From a bacterium (GTDB lineage Bacteria > UBA8248), in assembly GCA_965225985.1 (NCBI GenBank), contig OZ245330.1:3098019-3162018 (forward strand): a stretch of 64,000 nucleotides of DNA, read 5' to 3'. Below, piece by piece: positions 30,093-51,315 of this stretch. The position numbers and the translations under genes were made by a program. How positions within the stretch are numbered: the stretch's first letter is position 1; the number at the start of each line of letters is the position of its first letter. Below the pieces are notes generated by a model. The model saw nothing but the letters and a program-made list of their open reading frames with translations, ran no database searches and was not told where the DNA came from.

Positions 30093-30114
30093 GCCAACTA
30101 CCGGAAATTCGGGG
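30093..30114 (+). repeat. Dispersed-repeat core copy (GCCAACTACCGGAAATTCGGGG)
   Basis: Exact core, 40 nt upstream of the capsid gene on the minus strand. Confidence 0.7.
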
Positions 30115-30334
30115 AATTTCGCGCCAGGAAAAAATCCGCACTGTGGGGGGGGAATCCTTTGTTCCGGGGAGAAAAAAGTTCTGGTTGGCATGAGAATGGG
30201 GTTTTCAGATATTTCCCGTTCGGGTTCAGAACCCGCGATCCCGGATTCGGGAGCAACAATCCCATTTTGAGACACGCCCCCGAGGAAATCCGCTTGACGT
30301 TTCCCCCACCCCACCTAATATATTCAATGTCGCG

Positions 30335-31297
30335 TTGCGCCTTGACGATAAGGCAAAAGAGAGGGCGGCGACCGCAGCCGAAGACCGCTTCGGCGTCCCG
30401 GCCGCGCCGCCGAAAGGGCATATGGGGCCTGGATTTTCGGGAGAAAACATTCCGGTTTCGTTGAAACCCCGGCGGCCGCTGAACATTGCCACTTCCCATT
30501 TTCGAGAGGCCCGCTCTTTTCATCCAGATGAGGGGCACACCCCCGTGCGATACAGGCTCCGCGCTTTGACCCTGATCCTGGCCGCGCTTCTCCTGTCCGC
30601 CGCCCTTCCAGGCGGCGTTGCCCGGGCGCAAGAAGTGCCCCGCAAGATGGTTTTCATCCCCGGGGGGCTGTTCTTCATGGGCAGCGACGACAAGGGGAGG
30701 GACGAGCGCCCCCGCCGCCACGTGTACCTGGATCCCTTCTTCATCGACAAGTACGGCGTGACGAACGAGGCGTTCCGCAAGTACGCGCGGCCGGAAAAAT
30801 ATTTCGGCAAAAAGTTCAACGGAAAAAAACAGCCCATCGTGGGAGTAACCTAGTACCAGGCGAGGGACTACTGCCGGTCCGTCAAGAAGCGCCTTCCCAC
30901 CGAGGGCGAATGGGAAAAAGCCGCCCGGGGGCCGGACGGCTCGAAATACCCCTGGGGGAACTTCTGGATCTCGACCAACGTGATCTGGAAGAAAAACAGC
31001 CTGAAAAAGACCCACCCCGTTGACCGGAACTACAACCACAACACGAGCCCCTACGGCGTCTCCGACATGGCCGGAAACGCTTTCGAGTGGGTCCAGGACT
31101 GGTACGACCCGGAATACTACAAGCGGATGCCGGAGCGGAACCCGAAGGGCGCCTCGCGCGGCTTACTGCGCGTCTACCGCGGCGGCGCCTGGGACGTCAC
31201 GACCCAGCACGCCTTCCGCGGCTCCTACCGCTACCGCGGGCACCCCTACAAAACGGTCGACAACCTCGGCTTCCGCTGCGCCCGGGACCCGCGCTGA
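30335..31297 (+). pseudogene. FGE-sulfatase (SUMF1/EgtB/PvdO-type) domain protein with an in-frame TAG at 30851-30853; a reverse-oriented cargo gene between the portal and capsid genes
   Basis: GGLFFMGSDD...RHVYLDPFFIDKYGVTN...IVGVT[TAG][26 protein letters not shown]...[11 protein letters not shown]...RVYRGGAW...GFRCARD. The stop sits where the family has a conserved Trp (TGG). Confidence 0.65.
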
Positions 31298-31315: not shown

Positions 31316-32707
31316 CTAGGCGCTCCCCTCCACCTCCAACCCGAACTGCGAGGCCAGGTGGGCGAAGAGCTTTCCCGCCGCCCCGTCCTTGATCCAGCCC
31401 CGCCGCGTGGCGAGGTCCAGGGCGCGGCCGATCTCGTGGAGGGCGGCCGAGAGCTTTTGAGTGTCCTTCACGGAAATTTCCGGAAGCACCGCCCGCGCCC
31501 CCGCCCGGGCCGCCTCCTCCGAGAGCCTTCCCGCGCGGCGCGCCTCCGCGAGCTGCTTTTCGGCCATCTGCTGGAGGATGTGGCGCACCGTCCGCTGGCG
31601 CCGGCGCATCCGCTTCAGGGTGGGCTGGTCCATCGACTCCGCCGAGGCCCGGTTCGCGTCCTCCCCCTGGCCGAACCAGTGCTGGGGCACCCCCATCCCC
31701 CCCAGAACGAGCCCGCGCATGAGCCGGGCGAGCCCGCCCGTCCCCGCCTCCCCGGACCGGAGGTCGGGCGAGATCACCTGCCAGGCCTCCTTCTCGTTGT
31801 GCACCCGCACGCTCGCCGGCCGGGGGGCGGCCCCGTTCTGGGCCAGCCACTCGGCGATCCGCTCGGGCCCCGCCCCCTTCAGCGTCACGTCGTAGACAAA
31901 ACTGTTCTGGATGCGGGAGCGCTCGGCCGCGTCGAAGAGAAACCGCTCGTAGATGTCGATCCAGTCGATGGCCGCGAGGATGTCGCTCGTCCCGCGCGCC
32001 GCGTCGCTCGCCTTGTTGATCTGGAAGAGGAACGCCTCCCCGCCCCCGAAGCGCTCGCGCTCGCGCGCCGCCGCCGGGCCCAGGTACTCGCGCGGGTCCC
32101 CGGCCAGCACGGTGCGGACCCGCCGGCCCGGCCCCCCGTCCTCCCGCTTGAGGATCACCCCGATGGGAAGGGCGCAGTTGTCCGGATCCGTCACCACCTC
32201 CTCGATGAGGCGGGGCGAGATGTAGCCCAGGCGCACCCTCCCCTCGAAGCGCGAGACCGCCGCCGGGAGCAGCAGCTCCCCGAAGATGCCCAGCTCGCTC
32301 ACCAGCCGCTCGAAGCGGAGGTCCATCTGGTTCACCGGGTCCTCCCAAAATCCCCGCACCGCCGCCAGCGCCTCCGGGTCCGGGCTCTGCCACGAGATTC
32401 CCTCCCCCACCACGTGGTCGGTCACGATCTCGATGAGCCGCCGCCCCATCAGGTTGGTGAGCCAGAGGTCGTAGGCCAGCCCCTGCATCCGCTCCTGGGT
32501 GTAGCGGGGAACGTCCCCCCGCCGCCCCGAGAGCGAGCGCCAAAGATCCTCGTCCGGATCGATCGAAGTCCCCGGAAAGGCCGCCCGCGCAGGGGAAGCC
32601 CCCCGCGCAGGCGTTGCCCCCGGCTTCGGGGGAGTTGCCCCCTTCCTCGCCGCCTTCTTCGCGCCCGCCGCCGCCACATTCGCCAAGGCCGAACCCTCCC
32701 TTTTCAC
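31316..32707 (-). CDS. Phage portal protein
   Basis: 463 aa. The GTG/ATG start lies within repeat copy L1. The size, charged C-terminus and position immediately upstream of the capsid gene fit a portal. Confidence 0.55.
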   Translation of the reverse strand: MKREGSALANVAAAGAKKAARKGATPPKPGATPARGASPARAAFPGTSIDPDEDLWRSLSGRRGDVPRYTQERMQGLAYDLWLTNLMGRRLIEIVTDHVVGEGISWQSPDPEALAAVRGFWEDPVNQMDLRFERLVSELGIFGELLLPAAVSRFEGRVRLGYISPRLIEEVVTDPDNCALPIGVILKREDGGPGRRVRTVLAGDPREYLGPAAARERERFGGGEAFLFQINKASDAARGTSDILAAIDWIDIYERFLFDAAERSRIQNSFVYDVTLKGAGPERIAEWLAQNGAAPRPASVRVHNEKEAWQVISPDLRSGEAGTGGLARLMRGLVLGGMGVPQHWFGQGEDANRASAESMDQPTLKRMRRRQRTVRHILQQMAEKQLAEARRAGRLSEEAARAGARAVLPEISVKDTQKLSAALHEIGRALDLATRRGWIKDGAAGKLFAHLASQFGLEVEGSA

Positions 32708-32860
32708 CCAAAAATCATCCCGCGTCCGCCCTCTCCCCGCATGGAGAAAGGCCCGGGCCGCAAAGGCGCAAACGCCCCGCGCAGCCCCTTCTACCGGGGG
32801 AGCCTAGCCCAGGCTCGGAGAAAGCCAACTACCGGAAATTCGGGGAGGTTTGTGGGGGGG
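32668..32860 (+). repeat. Long copy L1 (about 190 bp) of the dispersed repeat family; it includes the portal gene's upstream region and first roughly 13 codons
   Basis: About 90% identical to 35531..35725. Contains the core at 32823-32845 and ends in a G-run. Confidence 0.75.
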
Positions 32861-33015
32861 GACGGGGGGGCTTTCTCCTGGGGGAGCCCAGGCCACACGG
32901 GAGAGAGTCAGCTGGCGGATATGCGGGGATGGGTGAGGAGGTGTCGAGCCCGGGCGGGCGGATCCCTCTATAATAATATGTTTTTTCTCACTCGCAATTT
33001 GAGGAACGATCAATA

Positions 33016-33774
33016 GTGCTTGCTTTCTATCTTGATGAATCAGGAACCCACAGCCTTAACCCCATAGAGTCTGAGTACCCAGTATTTGTATTGGCCGGGT
33101 GTCTAATGGACCAATCTTATCACGACAAAACGGCTACCGAGAGAATGAATCAATACAAGACTTGTCTTTGGAGACGAGAGGACATTATTTTGCACACTTC
33201 AGGTATCGTCGGAAAACAAAAAGGGTTTGAAAATTTAAGGGATGAAGCCGAATGGGAGAAGTTTTTAAGAAAAACAAATCGGCTGATGAGCGAATTGGAT
33301 TACATGGTTATCGCTTGCGCCATCCTAAAAAATGCACACAAAGAAAAATATGGTGGGGCGGCCTTTAACCCTTATTGTTTTTCTTTAGAAGTATTGGTTG
33401 AGCGATTGGTTTTTGAACATCGGGATAGAAAAGAAGTGGTTCCCGCTCAGATCATTGCTGAATCAAGGGGTGAAGTGCCTGACAGGCGACTCGATCTTGC
33501 ATGGAAGCGCCTTAAAAGAGATAGAACCTCTTATATTGGAGCAAAGGAAATTCGAACAAGAATCAAAGACGATGTTGTATTTTTTCAGAAAAAAGAAAAC
33601 ATTTACGGGCTTCAGCTAGCGGATTTAGTGGCGAGCCCAATAGGCAGAAAGGTTCTTGGGAGGCTAAGTCAAAATGATTGGGAGATTGTAAAAGGGAAAT
33701 TTCGGACCAACCCAAGAGGAAGGTACACCGGTTGGGGTCTCATTATTTTGCCCAAAAAAGGAAGCGGCCACTAA
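33016..33774 (+). CDS. DUF3800-domain protein
   Basis: Starts MLAFYLDESGTHS.... AT-rich (about 45% GC) island. Confidence 0.7.
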   Translation: MLAFYLDESGTHSLNPIESEYPVFVLAGCLMDQSYHDKTATERMNQYKTCLWRREDIILHTSGIVGKQKGFENLRDEAEWEKFLRKTNRLMSELDYMVIACAILKNAHKEKYGGAAFNPYCFSLEVLVERLVFEHRDRKEVVPAQIIAESRGEVPDRRLDLAWKRLKRDRTSYIGAKEIRTRIKDDVVFFQKKENIYGLQLADLVASPIGRKVLGRLSQNDWEIVKGKFRTNPRGRYTGWGLIILPKKGSGH

Positions 33775-33911
33775 AAGTGACCGCCCCACTCCACGTGTGC
33801 CCAAGTATTGTCCGGGCACCGGTTTTACAATCTAAATATAAGCTTCCGGCTATTCATTTGTCAAATATCACGTAAATTCAACGATTTGCATGGGTTTTGG
33901 CTGTTTATAGG

Positions 33912-34136
33912 TCAGCCTTCCCCTTCGAGCCCCTTAATTGCGGCCACAGCCCTCTGGCCGTCGCTCATCCCCCGGTGGTTCCAGCGGAAATCAAATTCGC
34001 TCAAGTATCGGGGCAAGTGCTCTTTACTGACGTGGTGGAAGGTTCCAATCACGCCACGCTTTATGAGGTTGAAATAGCTCTCGGCAAAATTCGTGTGAAT
34101 GATCCCGCAAAATTTCAGTTGGCCGAAGGCCTCCAC
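33912..34136 (-). mobile_element. Remnant of an IS1595-family transposase (C-terminal fragment only)
   Basis: 74-aa ORF ...IHTNFAESYFNLIKRGVIGTFHHVSKEHLPRYLSEFDFRWNHR... matches the conserved C-terminus of ISXO2/IS1595 transposases. No N-terminal part or inverted repeats were found. Confidence 0.5.
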
Positions 34137-34320
34137 CCCCCGCCCTTCGTGCTAAAATCATCTCATTCAAGAAGCCATCGGGAAAAATTTGCGGGTGAAT
34201 GGTTTCCACGCGCTCTGTTCTCCCACGAGGAGGTGGCCTGCGCTTTCACGCCTCGGGGGCAATAGGGCGCGGCCCGCTCTCCTCATCCATAGCTTATCCA
34301 TTCGAGAGAAAGGGCTCGGT

Positions 34321-35520
34321 ATGCCGATGACCCCTGCCGAGGATCGCATCCTGGCTTGTTTGGACGAAAAAGCCGTCCTGGCGACAACGCGCGAGCTCGT
34401 CCGCAGGCCGAGCGTCAACCCCCCCGGCGACTACGGCGCCGTCGCCGAATTTGTGGAAAATTGCATGAAAGATATGGGCCTCGACGTGGAGATTTCGGAA
34501 GGAACGCCCGGGAGGCCGAACGTGATCGGCCTCCTGCGGGGAGCCGGGGATGGGCCCGCTTTCTGTCTCTCCTCCCACATGGACGTCGTGGACCCCGGGG
34601 ACGGCTCCGCCTGGCGGTTTCCCCCCTTCGAGGCCCGGGTGGAAGAAGGCGTGCTTTGGGGCCGCGGATCGGCCGACTCCAAGGGCATGCTCGCGGGGAT
34701 GCTCGAGGCGGTCCGGGCCATCCGGGACTCCGGCGTGAAACCCAAGGGAGACCTCTATCTGGTGGCCGCCGTGGACGACGAAACCGCAGGGGAGTTCGGC
34801 CTGCGATACCCGTTCCAACAGGGCCTGGTTCCGGCGCGCTCGGCCATCCTGGGCGAGGCTTCGAACTTCGACGTCCCCCACGTCTTCAAGGGCCGGATCT
34901 GGTTCGAGCTGGATGTATTCGGAAAACCGAGCCACGGCGCCTTTCCCCAGGACGGGGTGAACGCCATCCTCAAGGCCTACAAGGTCATCGACGCCATCTA
35001 CGGCATCAAGCTGGGCGGCCATCCCCGCTTGGGGAACGACACCATCAGCCTCGGGACCCTCCGGGGCGGGAAGGTCGTCAACGTGGGTCCAGGGGAATGC
35101 ACGGCGGCCTTCGACGTCCGCTGGGGGCCGCCTCTCGGCAGCCGCGACATCCGGGCAAGGGTGGAAGAGGCCGCAAGGGGGGTCGTACAGAAGGATGGGG
35201 ACTTCGGCGTCGGAAAGATCCGCGCCAGCGAGGAGAGAGACCCCTTGGAGTTTCCGGAAGACTCCCCTCTGATCCGGGCGATCAAATCCGCCTGCCGCAA
35301 GATTCGGGGAAAAGAATCCGGCCTCATCGGCTGGTACTCCAGCGGCGAGGTCTATCACATGTTCCAAGGGGGGCACATCGACTGCGGCACCCTTTTCGGC
35401 CCCGGCGAGCCGCGGCAGGCGCACGCCATCGACGAGCGGATCGCGGTCAAAGACCTGGAAGAGGGCGCCAAAATCTACGCCCTGACGGCCCTGGCCATGT
35501 GCGGCGGGCCGGCCGACTGA
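34321..35520 (+). CDS. M20-family metallopeptidase (ArgE/DapE/acetylornithine deacetylase-like)
   Basis: HMDVVDPGDG, GRGSADSKG, AAVDDETAGEFG and the dimerisation domain are present. Confidence 0.82.
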   Translation: MPMTPAEDRILACLDEKAVLATTRELVRRPSVNPPGDYGAVAEFVENCMKDMGLDVEISEGTPGRPNVIGLLRGAGDGPAFCLSSHMDVVDPGDGSAWRFPPFEARVEEGVLWGRGSADSKGMLAGMLEAVRAIRDSGVKPKGDLYLVAAVDDETAGEFGLRYPFQQGLVPARSAILGEASNFDVPHVFKGRIWFELDVFGKPSHGAFPQDGVNAILKAYKVIDAIYGIKLGGHPRLGNDTISLGTLRGGKVVNVGPGECTAAFDVRWGPPLGSRDIRARVEEAARGVVQKDGDFGVGKIRASEERDPLEFPEDSPLIRAIKSACRKIRGKESGLIGWYSSGEVYHMFQGGHIDCGTLFGPGEPRQAHAIDERIAVKDLEEGAKIYALTALAMCGGPAD

Positions 35521-35530
35521 TCTTCCGGCT

Positions 35531-35725
35531 CCGCCGCCGCATTCGCCGAGACCGAACCCTCCCTTTTCACCCGGAAATCATCCCGCATCCGCCCTCCCCC
35601 CGCATGGAGAAAAAACCGGGCCGCAAAGGCGCAAACGCCCCGCGCAGCCCCGCTACCGGGGGAGCCTAGCCCACACTCGGAGAAAGCCAACTACCGGAGA
35701 TTCGGGGAGTTTTGTCGGGGGGGGG
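35531..35725 (+). repeat. Long copy L2 of the dispersed repeat family, carrying a truncated portal-like 5' gene fragment
   Basis: Core at 35685-35707 (variant GGAGATTCGGGG). The reverse strand encodes (M)KREGSVSANAAAEPED..., similar to the portal N-terminus (M)KREGSALANVAAAGAK. Confidence 0.75.
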
Positions 35726-35754
35726 ATTTTTTTCGTGCCGGAAGCCCGGGGGGA

Positions 35755-36180
35755 TCAGGCCGCCGCCAGCACCTCGTTGATCGTCCCGATGAATTTGGGG
35801 AGGGAAAAGGGCTTGCGGACGAGGGCGGCCACGCCGAGCGCGGCCCGCTCCTCCGGGCCCACCTCCTCGGCGGAGCCTGTCACCACCACGCAGGGCAGCC
35901 GGCGGAGGGCGAGGTGCCCGCGGAGAAAGCGGATGAGCGCCCGGCCGTCCATGCCGGGCATGTCCAGGTCGGTCAGGACGAGGTCGAAGGCGGAAGCCCC
36001 ATCCCGCTCCAGCCCCGCCTCCAGCAGGCTGCGGGCGCGGAGGCCGTCCTCGGCCAGGGCCACGTGCCGGAAGCCGAACGCGCCCAGGGCATCGCCGATG
36101 AAGGCGCGCATCCCCTCGTCGTCCTCGGCCACCAGAACGCGGCAGCCGCGATGGGGGGTGGAAAGTTCCCTGGAGTCCAT
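35755..36180 (-). CDS. Single-domain response-regulator receiver (CheY-like)
   Basis: RVLVAEDDEGMRAF...DLVLTDLDMPGMDG...VVVTGSAE.... Divergent from the cyclase gene at 36689. Confidence 0.7.
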   Translation of the reverse strand: MDSRELSTPHRGCRVLVAEDDEGMRAFIGDALGAFGFRHVALAEDGLRARSLLEAGLERDGASAFDLVLTDLDMPGMDGRALIRFLRGHLALRRLPCVVVTGSAEEVGPEERAALGVAALVRKPFSLPKFIGTINEVLAAA

Positions 36181-36319
36181 CTTCGCCTCACCGGGCGGAA
36201 AGGCAAATTGCGGTGTGCTATTCAAATTGACAACACATCCGCATCACCCAAAGTAACCCCCCGCGAAAGAAAATCGCAAAAGAGCACACGATCTGCGCGA
36301 AAAAGCCGGGAACGCCCGG

Positions 36320-36440
36320 GCCGCCGCCGGGAGAGCCCGGGCCGCAAAGGCGCAAACGCCCCGCGCGGCCCCGCTACCGGGGGAGCCTGGCCCAGACTTG
36401 GAGAAAGCCAACTACCGGAAATTCGGGGAGGCTTGTGTGG
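36320..36440 (+). repeat. Partial copy L3 of the dispersed repeat (3' roughly 110 bp)
   Basis: GCCCGGGCCGCAAAGGCGCAAACGCCCCGCGC...AGCCAACTACCGGAAATTCGGGG (core at 36406-36428) followed by a G-run. Confidence 0.7.
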
Positions 36441-36688
36441 GGGGGGGAATTTTTGGCCCTGAGCAAGGCCTGCGACTACCTTGTTTCGAATGAAGTGGCG
36501 GAGGAATTCTCCGCTTCTTTTTCTTTTTTTCTCGGTTCGCTTCTGGCGCAATTCCTGGACGCGTTGGTCTCGACTTGCCCTCCCTGGTTGCTGCTTCTCC
36601 TCTTTCTTGACCCTCGAATTCGCAACGCTTAGACTTTGCGGGATTTTCCTTACATTTTTGAGGAACCTGAAGGCCGGAGGACCGCTCA

Positions 36689-39600
36689 TGCAGTGCCCCC
36701 GCTGCCAAGTGGAAGCTCCGTCCGACGCGGAGTTCTGCCCCGAGTGCGGGGCGAAGCTCGCGGCCACCTGCGTTCAATGCGGCACCGAAAACGCCCCCAC
36801 CCATAAGTTTTGCAAAAAATGCGGCCAATCCTTGGCCCAGGCCGACGGCGCAGATTCGGCGGCCGCCTCGAAGTTCGCCTCCCCCGAGTCCTACACCCCC
36901 AAGTACCTCGCCGAGCGGATCCTGACCTCGAAGGCGGCTTTGGAGGGCGAGCGCAAGCAGGTGACTGTCCTCTTCGCCGACCTCAAGGGCTCGATGGAGC
37001 TTCTGGCCGACCGCGACCCCGAGGACGCGAGGGCGCTCTTGGATGCTGTCCTCACCCGGATGATGGAAGCTGTCCACCGCTACGAGGGCACAGTCAATCA
37101 GGTCATGGGCGACGGGATCATGGCGCTGTTCGGCGCGCCGCTGGCGCTCGAAGACCACGCGCTCCGCGCCTGCTATGCCGCCCTCGCCATCCAGAATTCG
37201 ATCAAGTCCTTCGCTGAGGAAGCCCGCAGGGAGCACGGCGTCGAGGTGCACATCCGCGTGGGGCTCAACTCCGGCGAGGTCGTGGTGCGGGCCATCGGCT
37301 CGGACCTCCGTATGGACTACACCGCCGTGGGCCAGACGGTGAACCTCGCCTCCCGGATGGAGCAGTTGGCCCAGCCCGGCAGCATTAGGCTTACAGCCGA
37401 CACCCTGCGGTTCGCCGAGGGGTTCATTCAGGCCGAGCCCTTGGGCCCGGTCCCCATTAAGGGGATGAGCGAGGCTGTCGAGGTCTTTGAGCTAACGGGC
37501 GCGACCTCGGGCAGGACGCGCTTTCAGGCCACCGCCGCGGGCGGTCTCACCAAGTTCGTGGGACGCCGGAACGAACTTGAAGACCTTCAGGGCGCGCTCA
37601 ACAAGGCAGAAGAAGGACATGGGCAGATCTTTGCCACTGTCGCCGAGGCGGGCGTAGGCAAATCGCGCCTCTACTGGGAGTTCACCCGCTCGCACAGAAC
37701 GAAAGACTGGATGGTCATCGAGAGCGGTTCGGTCTCCTACGGCAAGGCGACGGCCTACAAGCCCGTCATCGATCTCTTGAAAGCCTATTTCTCGGTCGAG
37801 GATTCTGACGACCACCGCCGTATCCGGGAAAAAGTGACGGGCAAGGTCCTGACCCTCGATGAATCGCTCACGCCGGCGATTCCCCCCGTTCTCTCTCTTC
37901 TCGAAGTGCCGATTGAGGACGAAGGCTGGACGAATCTCGACCCGCCCCAGCGGAGACAGCGGACTCTCGACGGCGTGAAGGGTCTCCTTCTCCGCGAGGC
38001 GAAGGTCCAGCCGCTCTGCCTCGTATTCGAGGACCTTCACTGGATAGATACCGAGACGCAGGCGCTGCTCGACTCTCTGATCGAAAGCCTGCCGGGTGCG
38101 CGGGCGCTTTTGCTGGTCAACTACCGGCCCGAGTACGAGCACGGATGGGCGAACATGAGCTTCTACACGAGGCTTCGCCTCGACCCGCTTTCCTCGGAGG
38201 GAGCGGCGGAGCTTCTGGCCGCTATTCTCGGCGGGGATCCTGCCTTGGACCCGCTCAAGAAGCTCCTCATCGAGCGCACCGAGGGAAATCCCTTCTATCT
38301 CGAAGAATCCGTCCAGACCCTCATTGAGAGCGAAGCCCTGGTGGGGGCTCCCGGCGCCTATCTGCTGACGGAGGAGGTTTCCAAGATACAGGTGCCCTCC
38401 ACCGTTCAGGCGATTCTCGCCGCCCGCATGGACCGCCTTCCGCCTGAGGAAAAACGCCTGCTTCAGACAGCCTCTGTAATCGGAACACATATGTCTTATC
38501 CTTTGCTCGCAGCTATTGCCGAGATGTCCGAGGAAGAGCTGAACCGGGGCCTTTCGGCCCTACAGGCTTCCGAGTTCCTCTACGAGACGAACCTTTTTCC
38601 GGAGCGCGAATTCACCTTCAAGCACGCCCTGATACACGAGGTGACTTACGGGAGTCTGGTCCAAGAGACCAAACGGGCCCTCCACGCGCTGGTGATCGAA
38701 GTATATGAGAGGGTCTACCCTGACCGCCTGAGCGAACACCTCGATACGCTCGCCCACCACCTTGTTCGGGGTGAGGTCTGGAGCAAGGCGTCCAAGTATT
38801 TTCGCCCGGTCCTCAGCATGTCCCCCGATATCTGGGGGACGGGTGATCATATGCAAACCATTGAGTTGGGCCAGCGCGACCTGGCGTCGGCGGCGAATTA
38901 TCGGAATTTCGGCCTGGAAGTGATGGCCAGCCTCCGCGTTGGCCTGGCCTGCCATGCGTTGGGGGATTATCCTCGGGCGGAGGAGTTGTTTGGGCGGAAC
39001 GTGGCAATGCTGGAAGGCGACCTGACCCGCGAACGCTTCGACCTGCCCGGCATCGCCTCCGTGCTCTCTCGCACCGGGCTGGTCCTATGCCTCGCCGAGG
39101 AGGGAAAGTTCGCCGAAGGAGTCGTGTGCGCTGAAGAAGCGGTCCTGATCGCCGAAGGGGCAAATCACCCGTACAGCATCGCTGTAGCGCAGTTCGGCCT
39201 TGGGTTCTTATATTTCTTCAAAGGGGATTACGCTAAAGCCATTCCCGTGCTCGAGGATGGCCTGGCCTGTGCGCAGGCAGCGGACATCCCGCAGTTGTTC
39301 CCGCTTATTGCATCGCCCTTGGGCGCCGCATATGCGCGCGGCGGGCGGCTGTCGGAAGCTCTGCCCCTCTTGGAGAAGGCTGTGGAAGAAGCCGCTGCTA
39401 CTAAACTCATGATCCATCAGTCGCTCCGGACTGCCTGGCTGGGCGAGGCCCATCTGCTGGCCGGGCGGCTGGACGAGGCGAGTCAATTTGCCCAGCGGAG
39501 CCTGGAACTCTCCCGCAGGCACAAGGAGCGGGGCCATGAGGCGTGGGCCCTCCGGCTCCTCGGCGAGATCGCCTCGCGTTGTGATCCCCCGGACGCCGAG

Positions 39601-39822
39601 AAGGCAGAAGACCACTATCGTCAGGCCCATCCTTTGGCCGAGGACCTGGGGATGCGCCCCCTGCTGGCGCTCTGCCTCCTCAGCTCAGGCTCCCATTACC
39701 GCCGGGTGGAGCGGGCGGAGCAGGCCCGGGCCGAACTGTGCGCAGCGGTCGAGCTCTTCCGCTCCATGGGGATGTCTCACTGGCTGCCCCGGGCGGAAGC
39801 GGAGCTCGCCGAGGCGGGATGA
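36689..39822 (+). CDS. Double zinc-ribbon / class III adenylate-guanylate cyclase / STAND (AAA_16) ATPase / TPR protein
   Basis: Two CxxC...CxxC ribbons at the N-terminus. Cyclase catalytic-domain blocks (VTVLFADLKGSMEL, GDGIMALFGAP). Walker A 'AEAGVGKSRL'. C-terminal TPR-like repeats. Confidence 0.82.
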
Positions 39823-40009
39823 AGCGCCCCTGCGGGCGGACCAGTCGCGAAAATCCACTTTCTTGACGGCCTCCCCCGGGTTCGAATAAACTTACATGGA
39901 ACCCTCTTTTAACTGCCCGTCCCCGCTGGGGGTACCCGGCGAGGATTTTTGCGTCACGCCTCCGTTGTTCACGTCGACGATGGTATTTGCGAGAAGAAGG
40001 AACCGCGAG

Positions 40010-40252
40010 ATGCCCCTTTTCCTTGATATTCATAACAAAATCAAGGGCTTGACGGCCGCCGCGGCCCACCGGCAGGACCTCGAAGTTCAGCACAAGTACG
40101 GGGTCAAGTACCTAAGGTATTGGTTCGACGAAGGCACCGGCAAGGTCTTCTGCTTGATTGAGGCCCCGAACAAAGAAGCGGCCGTGGCCGTGCACCGCGA
40201 GGCCCACGGTAACGTTGCGGACGAGATCATCGAGGTCGAAGAAGGTCACTAG
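40010..40252 (+). CDS. DUF4242-family small protein
   Basis: MPLFLDIHNKIKGLT...YWFDEGTGKVFCLIEAPNKEAAVAVHREAHG.... Confidence 0.55.
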   Translation: MPLFLDIHNKIKGLTAAAAHRQDLEVQHKYGVKYLRYWFDEGTGKVFCLIEAPNKEAAVAVHREAHGNVADEIIEVEEGH

Positions 40253-40280
40253 CCACAGAAGTCGCCATTTCAGTTGAAAT

Positions 40281-40884
40281 GTGAATTCCGGCTCATGCCT
40301 ACCCCCAGCGCGGTTGCTCATCGAGGTTGATGCCGAGAGCCGTCTTGGCCGCGCCTATTCCCTAGCCGGGAGACATTCCGAAGGTCTGTCATTTCTGGAG
40401 CAGGGCGAGAAGGAATCCGAATCCGTCGGAGCGCTCCATTGGCACTCGCTTCATGTCGCTTGGCAGGTAGAAGAGCACCTGCAGGCCGGGCCCGGATGAA
40501 GCCGCCATGCACGCCACTCGCGCGCTTGAGCTCTCCCGCGAGCGCAAAGAGCGTGGGAACGAAGCATGGTCTCTCCGCCTCCTCGGCGAGATTCACTCCC
40601 ACCCCGACGCCCTCGACGCCGAAAAGGCCGAAGACCACTACCGGGGGGCCCTCGCGCTGGCTGAAGAACTCGGCATGCGGCCTCTCCAAGCCCACTGCCG
40701 GAAGGGCCTCGGGGCGCTCTATGGCCGGACGGGCCGGGAGGAGAAGGGCCGAGAGGAGCTCACCGCCGCGATGGACATATACCGCGATATGGAGATGACC
40801 TTCAGGCTGGAGAAGGCGGAGGAGGCGATGGCGGGGGTAGGGGAAATTTCTTGCGGGCCGGGAGACAGGGGCGGGTATTGCTGA
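40281..40884 (+). pseudogene. Fragment paralogous to the C-terminal TPR region of the cyclase-STAND-TPR proteins
   Basis: LSRERKERGNEAWSLRLLGEIHSHPDALDAEKAEDHYRGALALAEELGMRPL aligns to LSRRHKERGHEAWALRLLGEIASRCDPPDAEKAEDHYRQAHPLAEDLGMRPL in the gene at 36689..39822. There are no upstream domains. Confidence 0.5.
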
Positions 40885-40941
40885 TCACATTTTGGGGATA
40901 GAGGAAATGATCCAGAAATGAAAAAGATTTGAAAAAACTAT

Positions 40942-41229
40942 TTACTTTTGCTTTTTCTTCTTTGACGCGGACTTTTTAACTAGGATTGGGAAATGGCCTT
41001 GGGCACATTCTTCGATATTGAGTTGGCGGACCATCTGACGAAGAATACCTACCTCGACCTCAATTTTGCTGAGGCTTTTGCCATGACCACCATTGGGGAG
41101 GTGACGAAAGCTCTTATCGTTGTAATATACCCAGTAGTTATGTGGCTTGAGGCTCATCGTATGCCCTGGGGCACATTCGTTCAGCATATCGACGATCTTA
41201 TCGAGACTTACAGTGCCAAACGAAGACAC
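40942..41229 (-). CDS. Possible HicA-like toxin (weak call)
   Basis: 95-aa basic protein immediately downstream of a HicB-like gene in an AT-rich island. It has a GHxxS...G pattern but no strong motif. Confidence 0.3.
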   Translation of the reverse strand: MSSFGTVSLDKIVDMLNECAPGHTMSLKPHNYWVYYNDKSFRHLPNGGHGKSLSKIEVEVGILRQMVRQLNIEECAQGHFPILVKKSASKKKKQK

Positions 41230-41231
41230 TG

Positions 41232-41693
41232 TCAGGCAGCCAAGGCTTGCTCTTGTTCTTCAATGATGTTCATCTCGGGCGTTGGCTTGGTGATCTCCAA
41301 TACCTCTACTTGGTTTGACCTATCTGCGGGCAGTTTGGGCAACCCTTCCACAGAATGATTGGATTCCCTTACCTCTTCTACTGCGGCCTTCCATTCCCTG
41401 AGAGTTGCTTCGCACTCGTCACAGAAGAAGGATTCCACCTCTCGGCTGAATTCGCTAAAATCCTCCGAACCATAGGCGATATCATAGAGAACCGAAATAA
41501 AAGCTTTTTTGAAGTTTAGATACGCTTCTCCCCCTGTTTTTCCGCCCGCCGAAAGACCTCCGGGGGTAACACCATAAATCCAGGTTCCGGCTTCTTCTTT
41601 AACGGCCAAAACTCGGCCCATAGCAGTGATGTCAGCCACAAAGCCCTTCCCAGAAACCTTTTCCCTAATAGTGAATAGGAGTGGCAGGTTCAT
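41232..41693 (-). CDS. HicB-like (UPF0150, RNase-H-like fold) antitoxin-type protein
   Basis: The N-terminus LPLLFTIREKVSGKGFVADITAMGRVLAVKEEAGTWIYGVTPGGLSAGGKTGGEAYLNFKKA fits the HicB pattern. AT-rich. Confidence 0.45.
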   Translation of the reverse strand: MNLPLLFTIREKVSGKGFVADITAMGRVLAVKEEAGTWIYGVTPGGLSAGGKTGGEAYLNFKKAFISVLYDIAYGSEDFSEFSREVESFFCDECEATLREWKAAVEEVRESNHSVEGLPKLPADRSNQVEVLEITKPTPEMNIIEEQEQALAA

Positions 41694-42009
41694 GGAATCC
41701 CTCCAGTTGGAATAATGCGTCCGATCGCAATTAAACGCACAAAACCCTAACAAAACCCTATAGGTACCTATCGGCACCAAAGCGGGAGTTAATAACACAA
41801 TGGCAAGTTCTCATCAATCGCTGAACTACACCATAAGCGGCCAAGGCTTTCAACAGTAAGTGAACCCCTCTCAGTATAATTTAACCCAAATGAGACAAAA
41901 AGCGACCATTATTTTCATTAAAATGTCCAATTTCACACACATTGTTTGAGCACATTGCATGCCAATTCATCTTGTTTCTGGTTGATATTTGTGGAATTTC
42001 TAAATGGGA

Positions 42010-42120
42010 CACCACCCAACTCCGCGCAAACGCCCGGCACGGCCCCGCTACCGGGGAGCCTGGCCCAGACTTGGCGAAAGCCAACTACCGGAAATTCGGG
42101 GGGGTTCGGGCGCGGGGGAA
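42010..42120 (+). repeat. Partial copy L4 of the dispersed repeat
   Basis: Core at 42079-42101 preceded by GGCCCCGCTACCGGGGAGCCTGGCCCAGACTTGG. Confidence 0.7.
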
Positions 42121-42236
42121 ATTTCTTGCGGGCCGGGAGACAGGGGCGGGTTTCATGCCCGCCGCCGCGGTTTCCGTGAATCACCCGGGCGGGGGGGGAG
42201 TTTTTTGCGGGGCGGGCGGCGCCCCCGGGCCGGCGG

Positions 42237-42689
42237 TCACGCCAGGGGTGTGGGAGCGCCCGCCGATTTGGTCTCTTCGAGGGCCTCGCCGATCGCGCCG
42301 GCGAGGTCCTTAAGTTCAAAGGGTTTTTGGAGGAATGCCGGGACGCCGAGGGCGGCGAGCGCCGCGCGGACATCGCCCCGGCCGGTGCCCGACATGGCGG
42401 CGCAGGGCGTCGGCCCGAGATCGGCGTGCCCCCGGATCCAGCGCAGGAGGGTGAGGCCGTCCATCCCGGGCATCCGCAGGTCGGTCAGGACGAGGCCGAA
42501 GGGCTCCTCCCGCGCCAGCCCCTCCTCCAGGTGGGTGAGGGCAGAAAAGCCTTCCCCGGCGAGGGTGACATGGCGGTGGCCGAGGGCGCGAAGGGCCTCG
42601 CCGAGGAATTCGCGCGTATCGGGGTCGTCATCCACCACGAGGATGCGGCGGCCGTTTTCTTCCTCATCTCCGGGAATCGGGGAATCCAT
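42237..42689 (-). CDS. Single-domain response-regulator receiver (CheY-like)
   Basis: RILVVDDDPDTREFL...LVLTDLRMPGMDGL.... A paralog of 35755..36180. Confidence 0.7.
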   Translation of the reverse strand: MDSPIPGDEEENGRRILVVDDDPDTREFLGEALRALGHRHVTLAGEGFSALTHLEEGLAREEPFGLVLTDLRMPGMDGLTLLRWIRGHADLGPTPCAAMSGTGRGDVRAALAALGVPAFLQKPFELKDLAGAIGEALEETKSAGAPTPLA

Positions 42690-42928
42690 TTTCTCCACTC
42701 TCCTTGCGTTTGCCGTGAGCGCGAATCTTTCTTCCTGCACACCACCCAAGATGTTGCAAGATGCGGTCCGCCGGGCGGGGGGAAAGTGAGCCGCGACACG
42801 CGGGGGGTGTGAGGGCGATCACAGGAAGGCCGGTTTTCAGGCGGTATTCGGCGAACCGGAGAAAAAGCGCGCGGGCGCGGAATGGGGCGCGCCAAATAAA
42901 CGGCGGGCCGCTGGGAAAAAAGGGGTCC

Positions 42929-44716
42929 CTACCGCCGCCACCTGCGCGTCCGGCGGCGGGCGTAGCTCGCCGGGTCCGCCCCCCAGTCGGGGGCCGAGCC
43001 GCCCTCGGTGTACCCCCCGGCGGGCGCGGTGAGGATCCCCTCGGCGCGGGCGAGCTCCTCGGCGAGCTTGGCGTAGGCGAAGGCGAAGTGATTCTCGTTG
43101 CGCTCGAAGCGCGCGCCCCCCTCCCCCTCCCCCTCCCCGCGGCCGCACCCTGAGGTTCATGAGGTGGGCGTCCACCTCGGCGAGGAGGGCTTCCTCGGCC
43201 GCGTCCCGGGGGGCGGGAAGGCGGACCGCGCCGGGCCCCCGTGGAACTCCTCCACAATCCGCTCGAGCAGCTCCTCGCGGTTCAGGCGCACATGGCCGCG
43301 CTCGACCCCGAGGAAGGCGACGCGCTTGACGGCCATCTCGCCCGGGGTGTGCCGCCAGATGAAGCAGCCCTCCGGGAGGAGGTCGTGCATCTCGCGGGCG
43401 GTCTGGGTGAAGGGCCCCCCGTCGATGACGGCGGCCTCGACCCCGAGCCGCCCGAAGAGGTCGGCGCAGCGCGCGGCGAGCCGGTCGATGGGGGGGCCTC
43501 GAAATAGACCCAGCGGACGGGGCCCTGGCCGGAGACCCGCTCGCGCACCGCGAGGGCGCAGCGCTCCCCGGTGTCGATGCCGCAAAAGCGGGGGGCGGTC
43601 ACGGCCCGGCCCCCCCGGCTTCGGCATCTTCCATGAAGAAGGGCTCCGCCCCGCGCAGCCGCCCCAGGAGGTCCGCCCCGATGGACTGGAGGTCGCCCGC
43701 CTCGGGAAGGGCGAGGCTCGAGCAGCGGAACCGCGCACGCTCGCGCGGGCTCGCCGCCGCGCGCCACTTCTCCGCGATCCGCCCGAGGCGGACGGCCCCG
43801 ACCGCGAGCTGGGAGATGCGGTAGCTCCGGTGGCCGGGGGCGGCGGCCTCCGCGTTCTGGGCGGCCCACCGCCCCGCCCCCCGCGCGAGGGCGCCGCCGC
43901 AGGCGGGGCAGGCGAGGGCGCCGGCCGCCGCCTCCCGCATCACCCGGGGCCAGCCCTCCTCCAGGACGGTCTCCTCCCCGCATCCGGGGCAGGGAACGCG
44001 CCAGACCCGCTGGTCCCCGCGCAGGTACATCGCGTGAATTCCCGCCCCGGGCGTCCGCCCCATGGCGAGGTTCACCGTGAGGGCGAGCCCCGAGGCGTCG
44101 AGCCGGTCGTTCGACCACTTCAGGTTTCGGGGGGGATGTCGTCCACCTCGTCCCGGATGAGGACGTCCATCGGCATCGAGATGGCGTTGCCGACATCGCG
44201 CAGGCCCAGGATGTAGAGGAAGCGCGAGCCGCCCCGCCCCGGGAACTCCTTCAGCCCCTTGGGGGAGACCCCCTTGTAGCGGCCGTCCCGCATGGCCCGG
44301 GCGAGGCGGCCGCGCAGGGCGGGCTTCACCCGGGTGTCGTCGAAGCGGTCCGCGAAATTCTGGTCCGGGAGGAAATAGCCCACGTTCAGCCGCAGGCGCG
44401 CCGCACAGTAGATCGCGAGGCCCACCGCGATCGTGGTCATCCCGATCTGGGTCCCCTTGAGGAGGGTCAGCGTCCGGCCCGGCAGGCCGAGGCGGAGCAC
44501 CTTTTCCAGATGGGCCGTCGCCTCGCGGAGGGCCTCCCGCCCGGCGAAGCCGAACCGCCCGGCGTCGGTGCGGATCTCCCGCTCCAAAAAGGCGGGGAAG
44601 GAGAGCCGCCCCGCCCCGAAGACCGGCCTCCCCCCCGCGAGGGAATCGAACACTTCTTCTCCGGTTTTCTTTTGCTGGAAATGAAACGATTTTTCCCCGA
44701 TCCGATCCAAGGCCAC
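42929..44716 (-). CDS. Phage terminase large subunit (GpA-like), with several apparent homopolymer frameshifts
   Basis: N-terminal ATPase segment with 'LKGTQIGMTT'. Later segments in other frames include a zinc ribbon 'CPGCGEE...CPACGG' and ...FERNENHFAFAYAKLAEEL...*. Frame breaks coincide with G/C runs near 44130, 43605 and 43495. Confidence 0.5.
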
Positions 44717-44777
44717 CCTCCCCGGGGAGGCACTTCGCGCCGCTCCCCGGGAGGGAGTCTAGGGCCGGGGCCCCGGA

Positions 44778-44800
44778 AGCCAACGACCGGAAATTCGCGC
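44778..44800 (+). repeat. Dispersed-repeat core, diverged variant (AGCCAACGACCGGAAATTCGCGC)
   Basis: 62 nt upstream of the terminase start on the minus strand. Confidence 0.6.
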
Positions 44801-45206
44801 ATTTTCGGGTAGTGGGTCAATTTGAATTTTTTAGGGGTAGGGTGCGAAAAAGGTTCTTCATTTGAATTTCAATATACACAATAAGAAATGCCCCCTCGGA
44901 CCCGATCCGAAAAGGGCATTTCCCCATTAGTGGTTCAAAAGCAACACTTACATATTCAAGTTTGGTAATTCAAGAAAAATATTGATCAGGGTTTTCCCTT
45001 CTAATTTAACCATTTTCGCGAATATCTATCCCTGGCGGGTCCATGCATCAAGCAAATAGTCCTGATTCGACTAAGGGCGGCTATCGTCTTTCAAAAGGTC
45101 AAAGGGTGAATATGGGTTGAAATCCATTCTTGCATGTCGTATATTTAGGTTAATCTAAAAATAAATTTAGTTTAACAAAAATTATGCGCGAGCAGGAGGC
45201 CAAACA

Positions 45207-45684
45207 ATGACGAAAATAATGTTTCGAGTTCCAGCGTTGGCGATTGTTTTTTGGGGGGGGTCTCTTGGCCGGGTGGGTGTCTTTGGCCGGGGCGGCCGAG
45301 AGGGTCATCTACATGCAGGCCATGGAGCCCAAAGGAACAACCTCTGCGAGCAAAGAGCCGTTTCCGGGCAAGACCCTTCCCAAGGGAGGTGGCTACATCA
45401 TCAAGCCGCCGAGCAAAGCGGGCAAGTGGCAAGTGTCGACCTACATCTTTAACCCCACCCAAGTCATTGTGAACAAGGGTGAAAAGGTGACGCTCAAGAT
45501 TCTTGGCATCAACGGCTCAAAACACACCGTGTCCATCGAGAGGTATGCGAAAAAGCCGTTTTCGATCAAACGTGGAAAGTTGACGGAGGTTTCCTTCGTC
45601 GCGGACAAGGCAGGCGTCTTCAGGATCGTCTGTTCCGAGCATCCACCAAGTATGACGGGCGAGATCATTGTCTTGGCCAACTAA
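45207..45684 (+). CDS. Small blue-copper (cupredoxin) protein with a signal peptide; frameshift in a T6G8 run
   Basis: MTKIMFRVPALAIVFWGG, then a shift to ...LLAGWVSLAGAAE.... Type-1 copper ligand pattern H...CSEHPPSM near the C-terminus. Confidence 0.6.
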
Positions 45685-45845
45685 GGCCAAATAATCAAAT
45701 TAGGACACTACCCAACTTCGCGGCCCCCCCGGCATGGGGAGACCCTCCCCCGGCATGGGGAGACCCGCCCCATTCGCCGGGACAGTCAATGAAACCGGGA
45801 TGTTCCGGATTCTTCAGCCGGCAAGAGCCCGCCCGCGGGCCGCCC

Positions 45846-47009
45846 CTATCGCAGAGAGGAGGCGGACTCGAGCTTCTTGAGGGCGTCCTTGGCTTCCTGG
45901 AAGTCGGGGTTCAGCACGATGGCCCGGCGCAGGGTCGAGGTCGCCTGGTAGGCGTCGCCGCTCCCGAAGAGGGCGAGGGCCATGTTGTAGTAGAGGACCG
46001 CATCGTTCGGCGCGACGGAGAGGGCCTGGCGGTAGTTCTGGATGGCCTCATTGTATTTCTTTTGCTGGCGGAAGGCGATTCCGAGCCGGTTGTAGTAGTG
46101 GATGTTGTCGGGATTGGCCTCGAGCGCGGCCGCGAATTCCGTCTCGGCGATGTCGGCGCGGCCGTTTTCGAGGAAAAACTCGGCGACGGCTGCGCCCCGG
46201 TCGCCCTCGTCTGGGTTCAGGGAAACGGCGGCCTCGATCGCCTCGCGCGCCTCCTCCACGTTTCCCTTCGAGATGTGCGCCTTGGCCAGCCGCGTCTGGC
46301 GATCGGGGTTGCGGGGGCTGAGGAGGGTCGCGCGCTTGATCGCCGCGAGCGCCGCGTCCGTCTTGCCCTCCTTTTGGAGCATGTCCCCGATGCGGTCGTA
46401 GGCCTTGGTGTAATTCTCGTCCACCTTCACCGCCTCCTGGTAGCAGGACTTCGCCTTGCGGCCCTCGCCCATGACCTCGTAGAGCTCGCCCGTCTTCGTC
46501 CAGACGCGGGGCGACTTGGGGTCGATCTCCTGGGCGGCGCTGATCTCTTCAACGGCCTCGTCGGGGACGCCGATGTCCAGGAAGGCGCCGCCCCGGGCGA
46601 GCCGGACGACGGTTTCCGCCGAGTACTCCCGCCGGAGGAGGACGGCGTTGATCATGTCCTCGACATTCTTCTGGGAAAGCGGGGTGATCAGCTGGCCGTC
46701 GGCTTCGAATTCGGCCGCATGGGCGATCTGATCCTCGTCGAGGCCGTCGCTTGTCAGCAGAAACGGCACGTTCTCGGTGACGGAGTTCTCCCGGACGAAG
46801 CGGAGGAGCTTTATGCCGTTTCTCTCGGGGGCCTCCCAGTTGCACAGGATGACGTCCACGCGGGTCTTGAGGAGGCTTTCCATCGCGTCGTTTTCGGTGA
46901 CGATATCGCGCAGGACCTCGAACCCCGACCGGTGCAGCATCTTCAAGAGCACGCTGCGGAACTGGCCCATCTCTTCGATAACGATGACCTGAAGCTTATC
47001 GTCAGCCAA
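45846..47009 (-). CDS. Response-regulator receiver domain fused to TPR repeats
   Basis: The N-terminus (VIVIEEMGQFRSVL...DVILCNWEAP) is receiver-like. The C-terminus has at least six TPR-like repeats. Divergent from the cyclase gene at 47421. Confidence 0.78.
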   Translation of the reverse strand: MADDKLQVIVIEEMGQFRSVLLKMLHRSGFEVLRDIVTENDAMESLLKTRVDVILCNWEAPERNGIKLLRFVRENSVTENVPFLLTSDGLDEDQIAHAAEFEADGQLITPLSQKNVEDMINAVLLRREYSAETVVRLARGGAFLDIGVPDEAVEEISAAQEIDPKSPRVWTKTGELYEVMGEGRKAKSCYQEAVKVDENYTKAYDRIGDMLQKEGKTDAALAAIKRATLLSPRNPDRQTRLAKAHISKGNVEEAREAIEAAVSLNPDEGDRGAAVAEFFLENGRADIAETEFAAALEANPDNIHYYNRLGIAFRQQKKYNEAIQNYRQALSVAPNDAVLYYNMALALFGSGDAYQATSTLRRAIVLNPDFQEAKDALKKLESASSLR

Positions 47010-49763: not shown

Positions 49764-49786
49764 TCCAATTTTTGAAAGGGCGCGCG

Positions 49787-50572: not shown

Positions 50573-50595
50573 ACCGAAGGGTGGGGGCGCAAAAC

Positions 50596-51225: not shown

Positions 51226-51315
51226 AAAAATAGCGCCCGCCCCCGGCACACGCTCCCGGGGGCGGGCGCCCCGCGTCATCATCAAAATGCCGGGACAGTC
51301 TCCGGCCCCGGGGGC

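Follow-up and report, generated by a model that had tools for sequence, protein, structure and literature searches.

In lambdoid phages, morons are independent transcription units located between genes that are adjacent in related phages (the Juhala/Hendrix concept), and Avs-type STAND proteins sense terminase and portal. Gene transfer agents (GTAs) include RcGTA of Rhodobacter, CcGTA of Caulobacter and BaGTA of Bartonella, and their attributes are listed in PMC9662315. In CcGTA, GafY and GafZ act at the cluster promoter together with anti-termination (PMC11150451), and a Bartonella preprint describes antitermination as integrating separate loci (10.1101/2024.11.20.624540). LypABC of Caulobacter is an NLR/STAND immune-like system co-opted for GTA release (PMC13236601). 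Furthermore, putative mobile promoters and promoter propagation have been described in prokaryotes (PMC3488235, PMC3575422). Here, a phage-derived gene cluster is described from a 64,000-nt stretch of bacterial DNA (GenBank assembly GCA_965225985.1, contig OZ245330.1, positions 3,098,019 to 3,162,018; hereafter the window), in which non-phage genes separate the terminase large subunit from the portal protein and copies of a promoter-like repeat lie among them.

The phage head-tail module is encoded on the minus strand and extends from 44.7 kb down to approximately 14 kb of the window. Between the terminase stop at 42929 and the portal start at 32707, 10,221 bp (32708-42928) are occupied by non-phage genes. 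The original prediction, made from the sequence of the window, had also placed cargo between terminase and portal; the separation stands, while its figure of about 12 kb counts the terminase gene as part of the interval. Its premise that a terminase normally adjoins the portal gene holds in this clade. A single portal homologue with 67-78% identity was present in each of 28 species-representative genomes (labels Nitrospinota, Candidatus Tectomicrobia or Nitrospinaceae; many of them complete chromosomes of 2.9-4.5 Mb), and both terminase open reading frames (ORFs) and the portal gene were contiguous in 28 of 28. Comparison of the junction with related contigs, which had been proposed as a check, yielded contiguous relatives and hypervariable sister strains. 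The interval is probably an insertion zone specific to this lineage and still in flux, set within a phage-derived, GTA-like cluster that is fixed in the chromosome of an uncultivated Nitrospinota/Tectomicrobia host.

The cluster is considered GTA-like, and not an ordinary prophage, because of its clade-wide synteny, the host genes inside it, a portal ratio of non-synonymous to synonymous substitution rates (dN/dS) of about 0.1 and the lack of an integrase nearby. It occupies the same chromosomal context across the 28 species, and its flanks are of housekeeping type (F420 biosynthesis, PmbA/TldD, a SpoIIE-type phosphatase, ornithine cyclodeaminase and a major facilitator superfamily transporter). 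Between moderately diverged species pairs the portal dN/dS was 0.07-0.15. Vertical inheritance was gauged by proxy, from dN/dS and from a gene-to-gene correlation in place of a host marker tree: portal divergence tracks that of the neighbouring diadenylate cyclase (Mantel r = 0.97, a value reached in 0 of 2000 permutations). No integrase, repressor/lysogeny or replication gene was detected among the ORFs of the 64 kb searched against Pfam and PHROGs, some small ORFs being without annotation. In the relatives, 3.5-9.5 kb of host-type genes, including two luciferase-like oxidoreductases and the diadenylate cyclase, lie between portal and capsid wherever the locus reaches that far. Neither a diadenylate cyclase nor a luciferase-like homologue is present in the window, where an FGE-sulfatase-like gene is the sole remnant of this block. 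The prophage of the original prediction is thus replaced by a cluster that is fixed, syntenic and under purifying selection across the clade. As a separate observation, the portal-capsid interval is a variable host-gene site among the relatives (e.g. L001:4524-8916 and L003:11611-21156; L numbers denote the assembled loci compared), and here it holds the one interrupted FGE-sulfatase gene.

The dispersed repeat that delimits the cargo is most likely the cluster's own promoter and not primarily a recombination site, as judged from sequence features. Its 21-nt core, CCAACTACCGGAAATTCGGGG, has 11 matches in the window at no more than 3 mismatches, all on the plus strand, with approximately 0.01 expected by chance; the core is perfect in seven of the 11. 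The five copies reported at 32.8, 35.6, 36.4, 42.1 and 44.8 kb were recovered and do divide the cargo, sitting at block borders, and six more lie outside it at 19.1, 21.6, 22.3, 30.1, 55.7 and 58.85 kb. All 11 copies have one orientation, pointing to minus-strand genes, and the next gene runs in the same direction. On the minus strand, the layout comprises a weak half-site CGAAAnT, CCCCGAATTTCCGG-TAGTTGG, a 16-17 nt spacer and a TAnAnT hexamer. Every copy has this hexamer (TAGATT, TACATT, TAGGCT) 16-17 nt downstream of TTGG, and beyond it come a GC-rich hairpin leader and then a same-direction ORF.

A homologous element is conserved in the relatives, where it was missed by repeat search within loci and found by reading upstream regions. 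It consists of a 20-nt tandem, CGCATTTCCC-CGCATTTGCG, then about 24 nt, TATATT or TAGATT, and a hairpin. At no more than 3 mismatches, 21 of 29 relative loci have the tandem 20-mer upstream of the terminase, and 11 of the 13 loci covering the capsid start have it upstream of the capsid. The remaining four matches are from loci that end just after the diadenylate cyclase gene, the place expected of a capsid promoter, and there was no other match across 481 kb of relatives' loci; in the other relatives the element is present as a single copy or is more divergent. With a poor -35 region and a 10-bp repeat in tandem at about -48 to -29, the element would most economically be read as an activator-dependent promoter common to the operons of the cluster, and the tandem repeat itself suggests a dedicated transcription factor.

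Several properties of the repeat could instead point to a non-autonomous element resembling a miniature inverted-repeat transposable element (MITE) or a repetitive extragenic palindrome (REP), or to a pac packaging-initiation site. Many near-identical copies occur in 64 kb, variable-length G-runs flank the core, and some copies, such as that at 35.6 kb, have no gene to drive. Such an identity is very improbable, however, given that no terminal inverted repeats or target duplications were seen at the copies, that 11 of 11 point the same way as the next gene, that a -10-like hexamer stands at fixed spacing, and that the homologous element is confined to positions upstream of terminase and capsid in the relatives. 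An Rfam search at gathering thresholds and a tRNA scan, both of the whole window, gave no match. The exact 21-mer core had no match in genome, viral and metagenome contig collections, from which this species is absent and in which the motif of the relatives has diverged. Terminator-like sites in the window were no commoner than in shuffled sequence.

Further features were observed around the copies. A GC-rich hairpin lies within a few bases of each promoter-like element, directly after TATATT in the relatives; at the capsid, the leader hairpin (30060-30040) is followed by a T-run and looks like a terminator. The leader hairpins could represent an attenuation or anti-termination element like that of CcGTA, by analogy, or a 5' stabiliser. 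G/C homopolymers beside the cores (32854, 35717, 42098, 42191) vary by 1-4 bases among assemblies, and the length differences of the G-runs may be sequencing errors or real variation.

Four portal-type copies (32.8, 35.6, 36.4 and 42.1 kb) are alike over 118-204 nt, for the most part with an identity of about 90% and less in the more divergent 42.1-kb copy, and they have far more sequence in common with each other than with the terminase-, capsid- or tail-type copies; the group goes back to recent duplication of the promoter-like element and leader of the portal. The 35.6-kb copy runs through the portal leader into the first approximately 40 nt of the portal ORF and is 92% identical to 32668-32788; because it aligns through the portal start in this way, it is, by its alignment, a duplicate of the portal upstream region and not an independent element. 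At the sequence level, similar segments are therefore found upstream of the portal, a portal fragment, REC1 (one of two receiver-only response regulators in the cargo) and the ORFs of an AT-rich island, as expected of mobile promoters. The relatives have no promoter before the portal because the terminase ORF ends right there, whereas the portal of the window has its own promoter-like element and leader; this lineage would have gained it when the operon was split.

According to the favoured explanation, the terminase-portal operon would have been broken and the portal kept expressed from a duplicated promoter. Further duplication of the promoter-leader unit, insertion sequence (IS) activity and recombination between paralogs would then have built the cargo and would continue to reshape it. 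As a by-product, REC1 and the AT-island ORFs would have come to lie behind promoter copies and the second receiver, REC2, to be co-transcribed with the terminase. REC2 and the terminase are on the same strand with no promoter copy in between, so REC2 would be read from the terminase promoter if the promoter reading is right. Cargo genes placed behind the same type of promoter would thereby be wired to the signal that controls the particle genes.

Sister assemblies of this lineage differ in the terminase-portal interval in four ways. The sister assembly L005/L039 is without a 943-bp segment (36273-37215), with no microhomology at the junction; the segment comprises the 36.4-kb promoter copy and the first approximately 176 codons of CYC1, a cyclase/STAND gene, counted from the ATG at 36688 (approximately 245 from 36481). 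L041 contains a 3,867-bp IS1595-family transposon at 41876-41883, within an AT-rich island (40885-42009); the transposon encodes a ParA-like protein and an intact transposase and is bounded by 26-bp perfect inverted repeats, and its 8-bp target duplication is ATAATTTA. A 1,273-bp IS3-family element forms a different left boundary in L041 and L042, where it links window positions 8350 and 33425, the latter inside the DUF3800 gene, and L044 begins at 33431, such that only the right side of the IS3-linked boundary is visible. The 25 kb with portal, capsid and tail are deleted or relocated in L041, L042 and L044; no portal at 90% identity or more was recorded on these contigs, one of 2.84 Mb included. 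Finally, L047, which has approximately 90-95% nucleotide identity to the window, has only 4.2 kb between terminase and portal. A 63-aa ORF and an S49 protease of L047 lie between two promoter copies. L047 has one receiver gene, a chimera of a REC2-like 5' end and a REC1-like 3' end that switch in a shared stretch, the signature of a homologous recombination between REC2 and REC1 as direct paralogs that removed 6.5 kb. L047 and the window become homologous again precisely where the portal promoter core has its upstream edge (32848).

The terminase-portal junction is thus a rearrangement hotspot in this lineage and in none of the 28 other species, and the hotspot part of the original prediction is borne out by at least five structural variants in closely related assemblies. 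The broader interpretation, in which an ordinary and possibly defective prophage has a moron or defence-island hotspot at this junction with the repeat as recombination substrate, is distinctly unlikely. It accounts for cargo between genes adjacent in relatives, for two AT-rich sub-islands, for repeat copies at block borders, one of which is where the window-L047 homology breaks, and for hypervariability among sister strains. On the other hand, it does not fit a cluster whose chromosomal position is shared by 28 species, which encloses host genes and has a low dN/dS, and near which the ORFs searched include no integrase, repressor or replication gene. Relatives devoid of cargo also keep the repeat core upstream of terminase and capsid, and the rearrangements on record went through IS elements, through REC paralogs or without homology. 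No defence system was detected: a search with PADLOC-DB v2 matched PycC models only, and those only to the class III cyclase domains of the paralogs CYC1 and CYC2, which are generic cyclase-domain matches. Eight other proteins searched, seven of them cargo ORFs, matched no model, no Pycsar effector gene was found, and CYC1 had no match to the Avs or CARD-NLR models in PADLOC.

The order of terminase, cargo and portal was also recovered independently of the window. The window is 99.98% identical to ctg124344 of ENA assembly ERZ28763718, and the same order is present in ERZ28669063, ERZ26167216 and ERZ21829562 (four samples in all, contigs of up to 3.36 Mb). An assembly chimera, with terminase and portal from different loci joined at the repeat, can be set aside because the order was assembled independently in four samples. 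Repeats are present and the window assembly shows homopolymer indels of the kind usual in long-read consensus errors, but the repeats span at most 204 bp and the relatives place terminase and portal in one cluster, leaving a chimera barely conceivable. The misassembly of separate elements that the original prediction had named as its possible undoing is likewise contradicted by the common layout.

The cargo is a mosaic in which deviant base composition is confined to two sub-islands, while most of it is native-like and has paralogs next door (CYC2 and a REC-TPR gene). Against a window GC of 0.647 (approximately 65%), at which third-codon-position GC tells real genes from shadow ORFs, GC is 0.463 in island 32872-34179 and 0.448 in island 40885-42009. 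Both AT-rich islands of the original prediction are therefore real, and its suggestion of per-block GC profiling recovered them. Its cargo list was largely upheld (DUF3800, an IS1595 remnant, an M20 peptidase, both receivers, the 1044-aa protein, DUF4242 and a cyclase fragment), with the exception of a HicAB-like pair. The features are given in Table 1. REC2 and REC1 are 47% identical. The CYC1 start was placed at the ATG at 36688, although the frame is open from 36481. PF14026, to which the SCO4226-like protein belongs, is presumably the family formerly named DUF4242. The TPR fragment at 40507-40884 is, from its similarity to the CYC1 C-terminus, a remnant of a cyclase/STAND paralog. The IS1595 fragment spans profile positions 113-153 of 153, i.e. 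the last 41, and is 51% identical to the intact transposase of L041; in the window the element is represented by this C-terminal fragment alone, with no element ends, and is thus a remnant.

Direct repeats of 45 nt (40832-40876 and 42107-42151, 93% identical) bracket the second AT-rich island plus a promoter copy. Because these repeats flank the island together with its promoter copy, they suggest that a 1.23-kb unit arrived or was duplicated as one piece. Two minus-strand ORFs of this island were the proposed HicAB pair, and the gene caller of another assembly picks an opposite-strand ORF in 40942-41798. The pair had no Pfam match at E of 5 or below. Searches of PDB sequences gave nothing for the 95-aa ORF and two chance-level matches for the other ORF, and BLASTP with an E. 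coli HicA sequence gave E = 2.7. An AlphaFold2 model of low confidence (predicted local distance difference test score 61) had no fold match at E of 0.001 or below, the HicA fold included, and the HicAB assignment was dropped.

Table 1. Positions and supporting matches of genes and promoter-like elements in the 64-kb window. Cores refer to the 21-nt repeat core.
Feature	Position	Strand	Description
Terminase promoter-like element	44756-44815	-	Core 44780-44800, 3 mismatches; same architecture as the relatives' terminase element
Terminase large subunit, ATPase ORF	43629-44716	-	Weak PF05876 match; phrog_675 positions 22-338
Terminase large subunit, nuclease ORF	42929-43602	-	tblastn homology to the relatives' second terminase ORF
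REC2, receiver-only response regulator	42237-42749	-	PF00072, E = 5e-20; directly downstream of terminase
AT-island portal-type promoter-like element and leader copy	42010-42127	-	Core 42081-42101
AT-island ORF	41232-41798	-	No annotation
AT-island ORF	40942-41229	-	No annotation; alternatively 40993-41358 (+)
TPR fragment	40507-40884	+	57% identical to the CYC1 C-terminus
SCO4226-like protein	39896-40252	+	PF14026
CYC1	36688-39822	+	1044 aa; double zinc ribbon, class III nucleotidyl cyclase, AAA_16 STAND ATPase, TPR
REC1 portal-type promoter-like element and leader copy	36337-36454	-	Core 36408-36428
REC1, receiver-only response regulator	35755-36225	-	PF00072, E = 2e-15
35.6-kb portal-type promoter-like element and leader copy	35531-35733	-	Core 35687-35707, 1 mismatch; no gene downstream
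M20 peptidase	34189-35520	+	Pfam; also in the same interval of L047
IS1595 transposase, C-terminal fragment	33912-34136	-	74 aa; PF12762, E = 2.7e-13
DUF3800 protein	33016-33774	+	Pfam; in AT-rich island 32872-34179
Portal promoter-like element and leader	32708-32871	-	Core 32825-32845; leader of about 115 nt
Portal protein	31316-32707	-	phrog_10963, E = 3e-45; 67-78% identity to portals of 28 species genomes
FGE-sulfatase-like gene	30335-31297	+	In-frame stop 30851-30853
Capsid promoter-like element	30070-30129	-	Core 30094-30114
Prohead protease/major capsid fusion	27697-30051	-	PF25209, E = 2e-42; phrog_4523 and phrog_133
Tail tube	23515-24435	-	PF18906; small head-tail genes and neck protein (phrog_5) nearby
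Tail-region promoter-like copies, three	19107-22326	-	Cores 19107, 21615 and 22306, upstream of tail-region genes
Promoter-like copies outside the cluster	55697-58870	-	Core 55697, lipoprotein-like ORF; core 58850, M15-peptidase/endolysin-like ORF
CYC2	47343-49601	+	Paralog of CYC1, 38-44% identity

The terminase of the window is interrupted. Its ATPase ORF has 63-66% identity to relatives, spread over two frames in tblastn, and the breaks lie at about 44130 (a C7 run), at about 43490 (a G run) and at a -1/+7 indel pair (43236 and 43133-43141) that, relative to L005, makes a stop at 43157 in the nuclease ORF. Since the breaks occur at G/C homopolymers and the frame is intact in five of seven sister assemblies (L039, L040, L042, L044 and L047), they are probably consensus errors of the window assembly. 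In the relatives the terminase is encoded by two ORFs, ATPase then nuclease, with an ATGA or GTGA stop/start overlap (13 of 15 relatives checked); the second ORF covers phrog_675 positions 352-549. Such a conserved split terminase is unusual (e.g. L001:1364-3096, L003:8332-9998 and L006:3299-5052), and in L007 both parts are apparently fused in one frame. Near the portal 5' end, a short duplication distinguishes L040:1578-1617 from window 32616-32631 (portal 474 aa, not 456 aa).

A number of observations weigh against a maintained GTA-like cluster with its own promoter. Promoter function was inferred from position, orientation, the -10-like hexamer and conservation, and the repeat copies went undetected in a generic sigma-70 scan. 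No variant shows a crossover between two promoter copies, plausible as such a crossover is. L047 was considered as an intermediate in the growth of the cargo and rejected, as its chimeric receiver gene indicates a derived deletion; it gives no order of events. The terminase is frame-broken in the window itself, and in three assemblies (L041, L042 and L044) the portal-to-tail block is not beside the terminase. Approximately 18 non-synonymous to 10 synonymous changes separate the phage genes of the window from those of L005, a ratio that is uninformative in assemblies this prone to error, as consensus errors cannot be told from relaxed selection. The cluster may also be decaying: a frameshifting deletion at 26710-26726 in the head-tail region is common to the window, L005 and L046 and absent from L047. 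The affected minus-strand gene encodes 113 aa in relatives (L047:16032-16373) with a weak major-tail-protein PHROG match, and the deletion removes approximately 13 codons.

Decay is a serious rival on these grounds. In that account, possible if on the unlikely side, the cluster is dispensable in this species and relaxed selection lets the interval fill and lose pieces, such that the promoter copies are leftovers and the cargo is functionally unlinked to the particle genes. Besides the head-tail deletion and the missing adjacent portal-to-tail block, it is consistent with a 114-bp deletion in the terminase nuclease ORF of L041, with the loss of a promoter copy and the CYC1 N-terminus in L005, with the 35.6-kb promoter copy that drives nothing, and with the interrupted FGE-sulfatase gene. 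In contrast, the portal, capsid, tube and most head-tail ORFs are full length, the terminase is uninterrupted in most of the sister assemblies, and the perfect core in the majority of copies is unexpected for decaying DNA. Single frameshifts, furthermore, are unreliable in homopolymer-rich long-read assemblies.

A more far-reaching interpretation, by analogy with described systems, is an unlikely one: a working and hitherto undescribed GTA family of Nitrospinota/Tectomicrobia with a dedicated tandem-repeat promoter across dispersed operons, in which, in this species, signalling genes are drawn into the particle regulon by the promoter-leader cassette. The recruited genes would be those of the two CheY-like receivers and of the cyclase-STAND-TPR protein, the last of which is encoded between its possible ligands, terminase and portal, and phosphorelay or cyclic-nucleotide signalling would gate particle production or release in the manner of LypABC (PMC13236601).

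Additional variation was observed beyond the terminase-portal interval. The flank upstream of the terminase (44808-51881) is also variable: relatives have ammonium transporter and P-II genes there that are absent from the window, and in L047 (2636-3917) an ornithine cyclodeaminase adjoins the terminase promoter. In the window, 7 kb separate the terminase promoter from the ornithine cyclodeaminase and contain a cupredoxin-like ORF in AT-rich DNA, REC-TPR and CYC2, and the gene calls of L039 add two methyltransferase genes to this flank. Gene calls divide CYC2 into two ORFs (47421-48617 and 48714-49763) in the window, L040, L042 and L044, with a shorter first ORF in L043, which may reflect a genuine split or a pseudogene and not an error of assembly. 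A third AT-rich island (53000-54500, GC 0.43-0.48) contains a 234-aa ORF (53422-54126, minus strand) with no Pfam match.

Beyond the tail tube, the distal ORFs are larger and extend to about 14 kb. Within 19271-22907, four small minus-strand single-pass membrane proteins that start with MRGIYQNVVWTVIALALTLIALNPWLAPGG are encoded (19271-19495, 21305-21490, 21973-22275 and 22680-22907). The MRGIYQNVVWTVIALALTLIALNPWLAPGG family is interleaved with two paralogous coiled-coil ORFs (21654-21947 and 22355-22624) that have weak tape-measure matches. The array is composed of repeated units of approximately 690-860 bp with three promoter copies among them, and no full-length tape-measure gene was seen in this region.

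The cluster is a candidate for a new GTA-like family in a phylum where the literature searched showed none; GTA-type elements are known from few lineages. It also provides a rare view of remodelling after domestication, by operon break, promoter duplication, and cargo gain and loss through IS elements, illegitimate deletion and paralog recombination, each step of gain and loss being visible as a population variant. The 20-nt tandem element is a handle for finding the regulator and defining the full regulon. For annotation, the locus carries the caution that a dispersed repeat delimiting cargo can be regulatory and need not be a site of recombination. Its interest derives mainly from a clade-wide cluster with a conserved promoter element, combined with an unusually complete series of population variants.

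Compared with the GTAs, the window cluster shares caudovirus-type head-tail genes that are fixed in the chromosome and inherited with the host, interleaved host genes, unlinked genes that apparently belong to it (those at 55.7 and 58.85 kb carry the promoter element), the lack of an integration or replication module among the ORFs searched, and a putative dedicated promoter element common to separate transcription units. Among the attributes listed in PMC9662315, it displays caudovirus-like structural and packaging proteins, endogenised genes and, by proxy, mostly vertical inheritance. It differs in being known from genes alone, whereas GTA particles package mostly random host DNA, are too small for their whole gene cluster and carry DNA into other cells (PMC9662315), in its host phylum, in the terminase split into two ORFs in most relatives, and in being interrupted by 10 kb of cargo and possibly decaying. 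No paper linking GTAs to Tectomicrobia or describing one in Nitrospinota was found in the literature searched.

As in morons, the insertion lies between neighbours that are contiguous in all relatives, its composition is partly deviant and the inserted units carry promoter-like elements. In contrast to morons, however, the host element is a domesticated cluster and not a phage, the promoter copies are apparently the element's own late-type promoter and not foreign, and most of the cargo resembles its surroundings in composition and has its paralogs, CYC2 and REC-TPR, next door. With mobile promoters the locus shares near-identical promoter-leader segments upstream of unrelated genes, one copy keeping a piece of the original gene; it differs in that the putative unit stems from a phage-derived regulon and is concentrated in one 10-kb interval. 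REP and MITE repeats differ from the window copies, which have a single orientation and no inverted termini in evidence. Similar to LypABC and the Avs proteins, CYC1 combines a STAND ATPase, a TPR sensor region and an N-terminal enzymatic domain, and it is encoded between the terminase and portal genes. The link to those systems is positional only, and unlike them CYC1 has a paralog outside the cluster (CYC2) and is truncated in L005 and deleted in L047. Taken together, the locus combines known kinds of element, namely a GTA-like domesticated phage cluster, a moron-type insertion and promoter propagation (PMC3488235).

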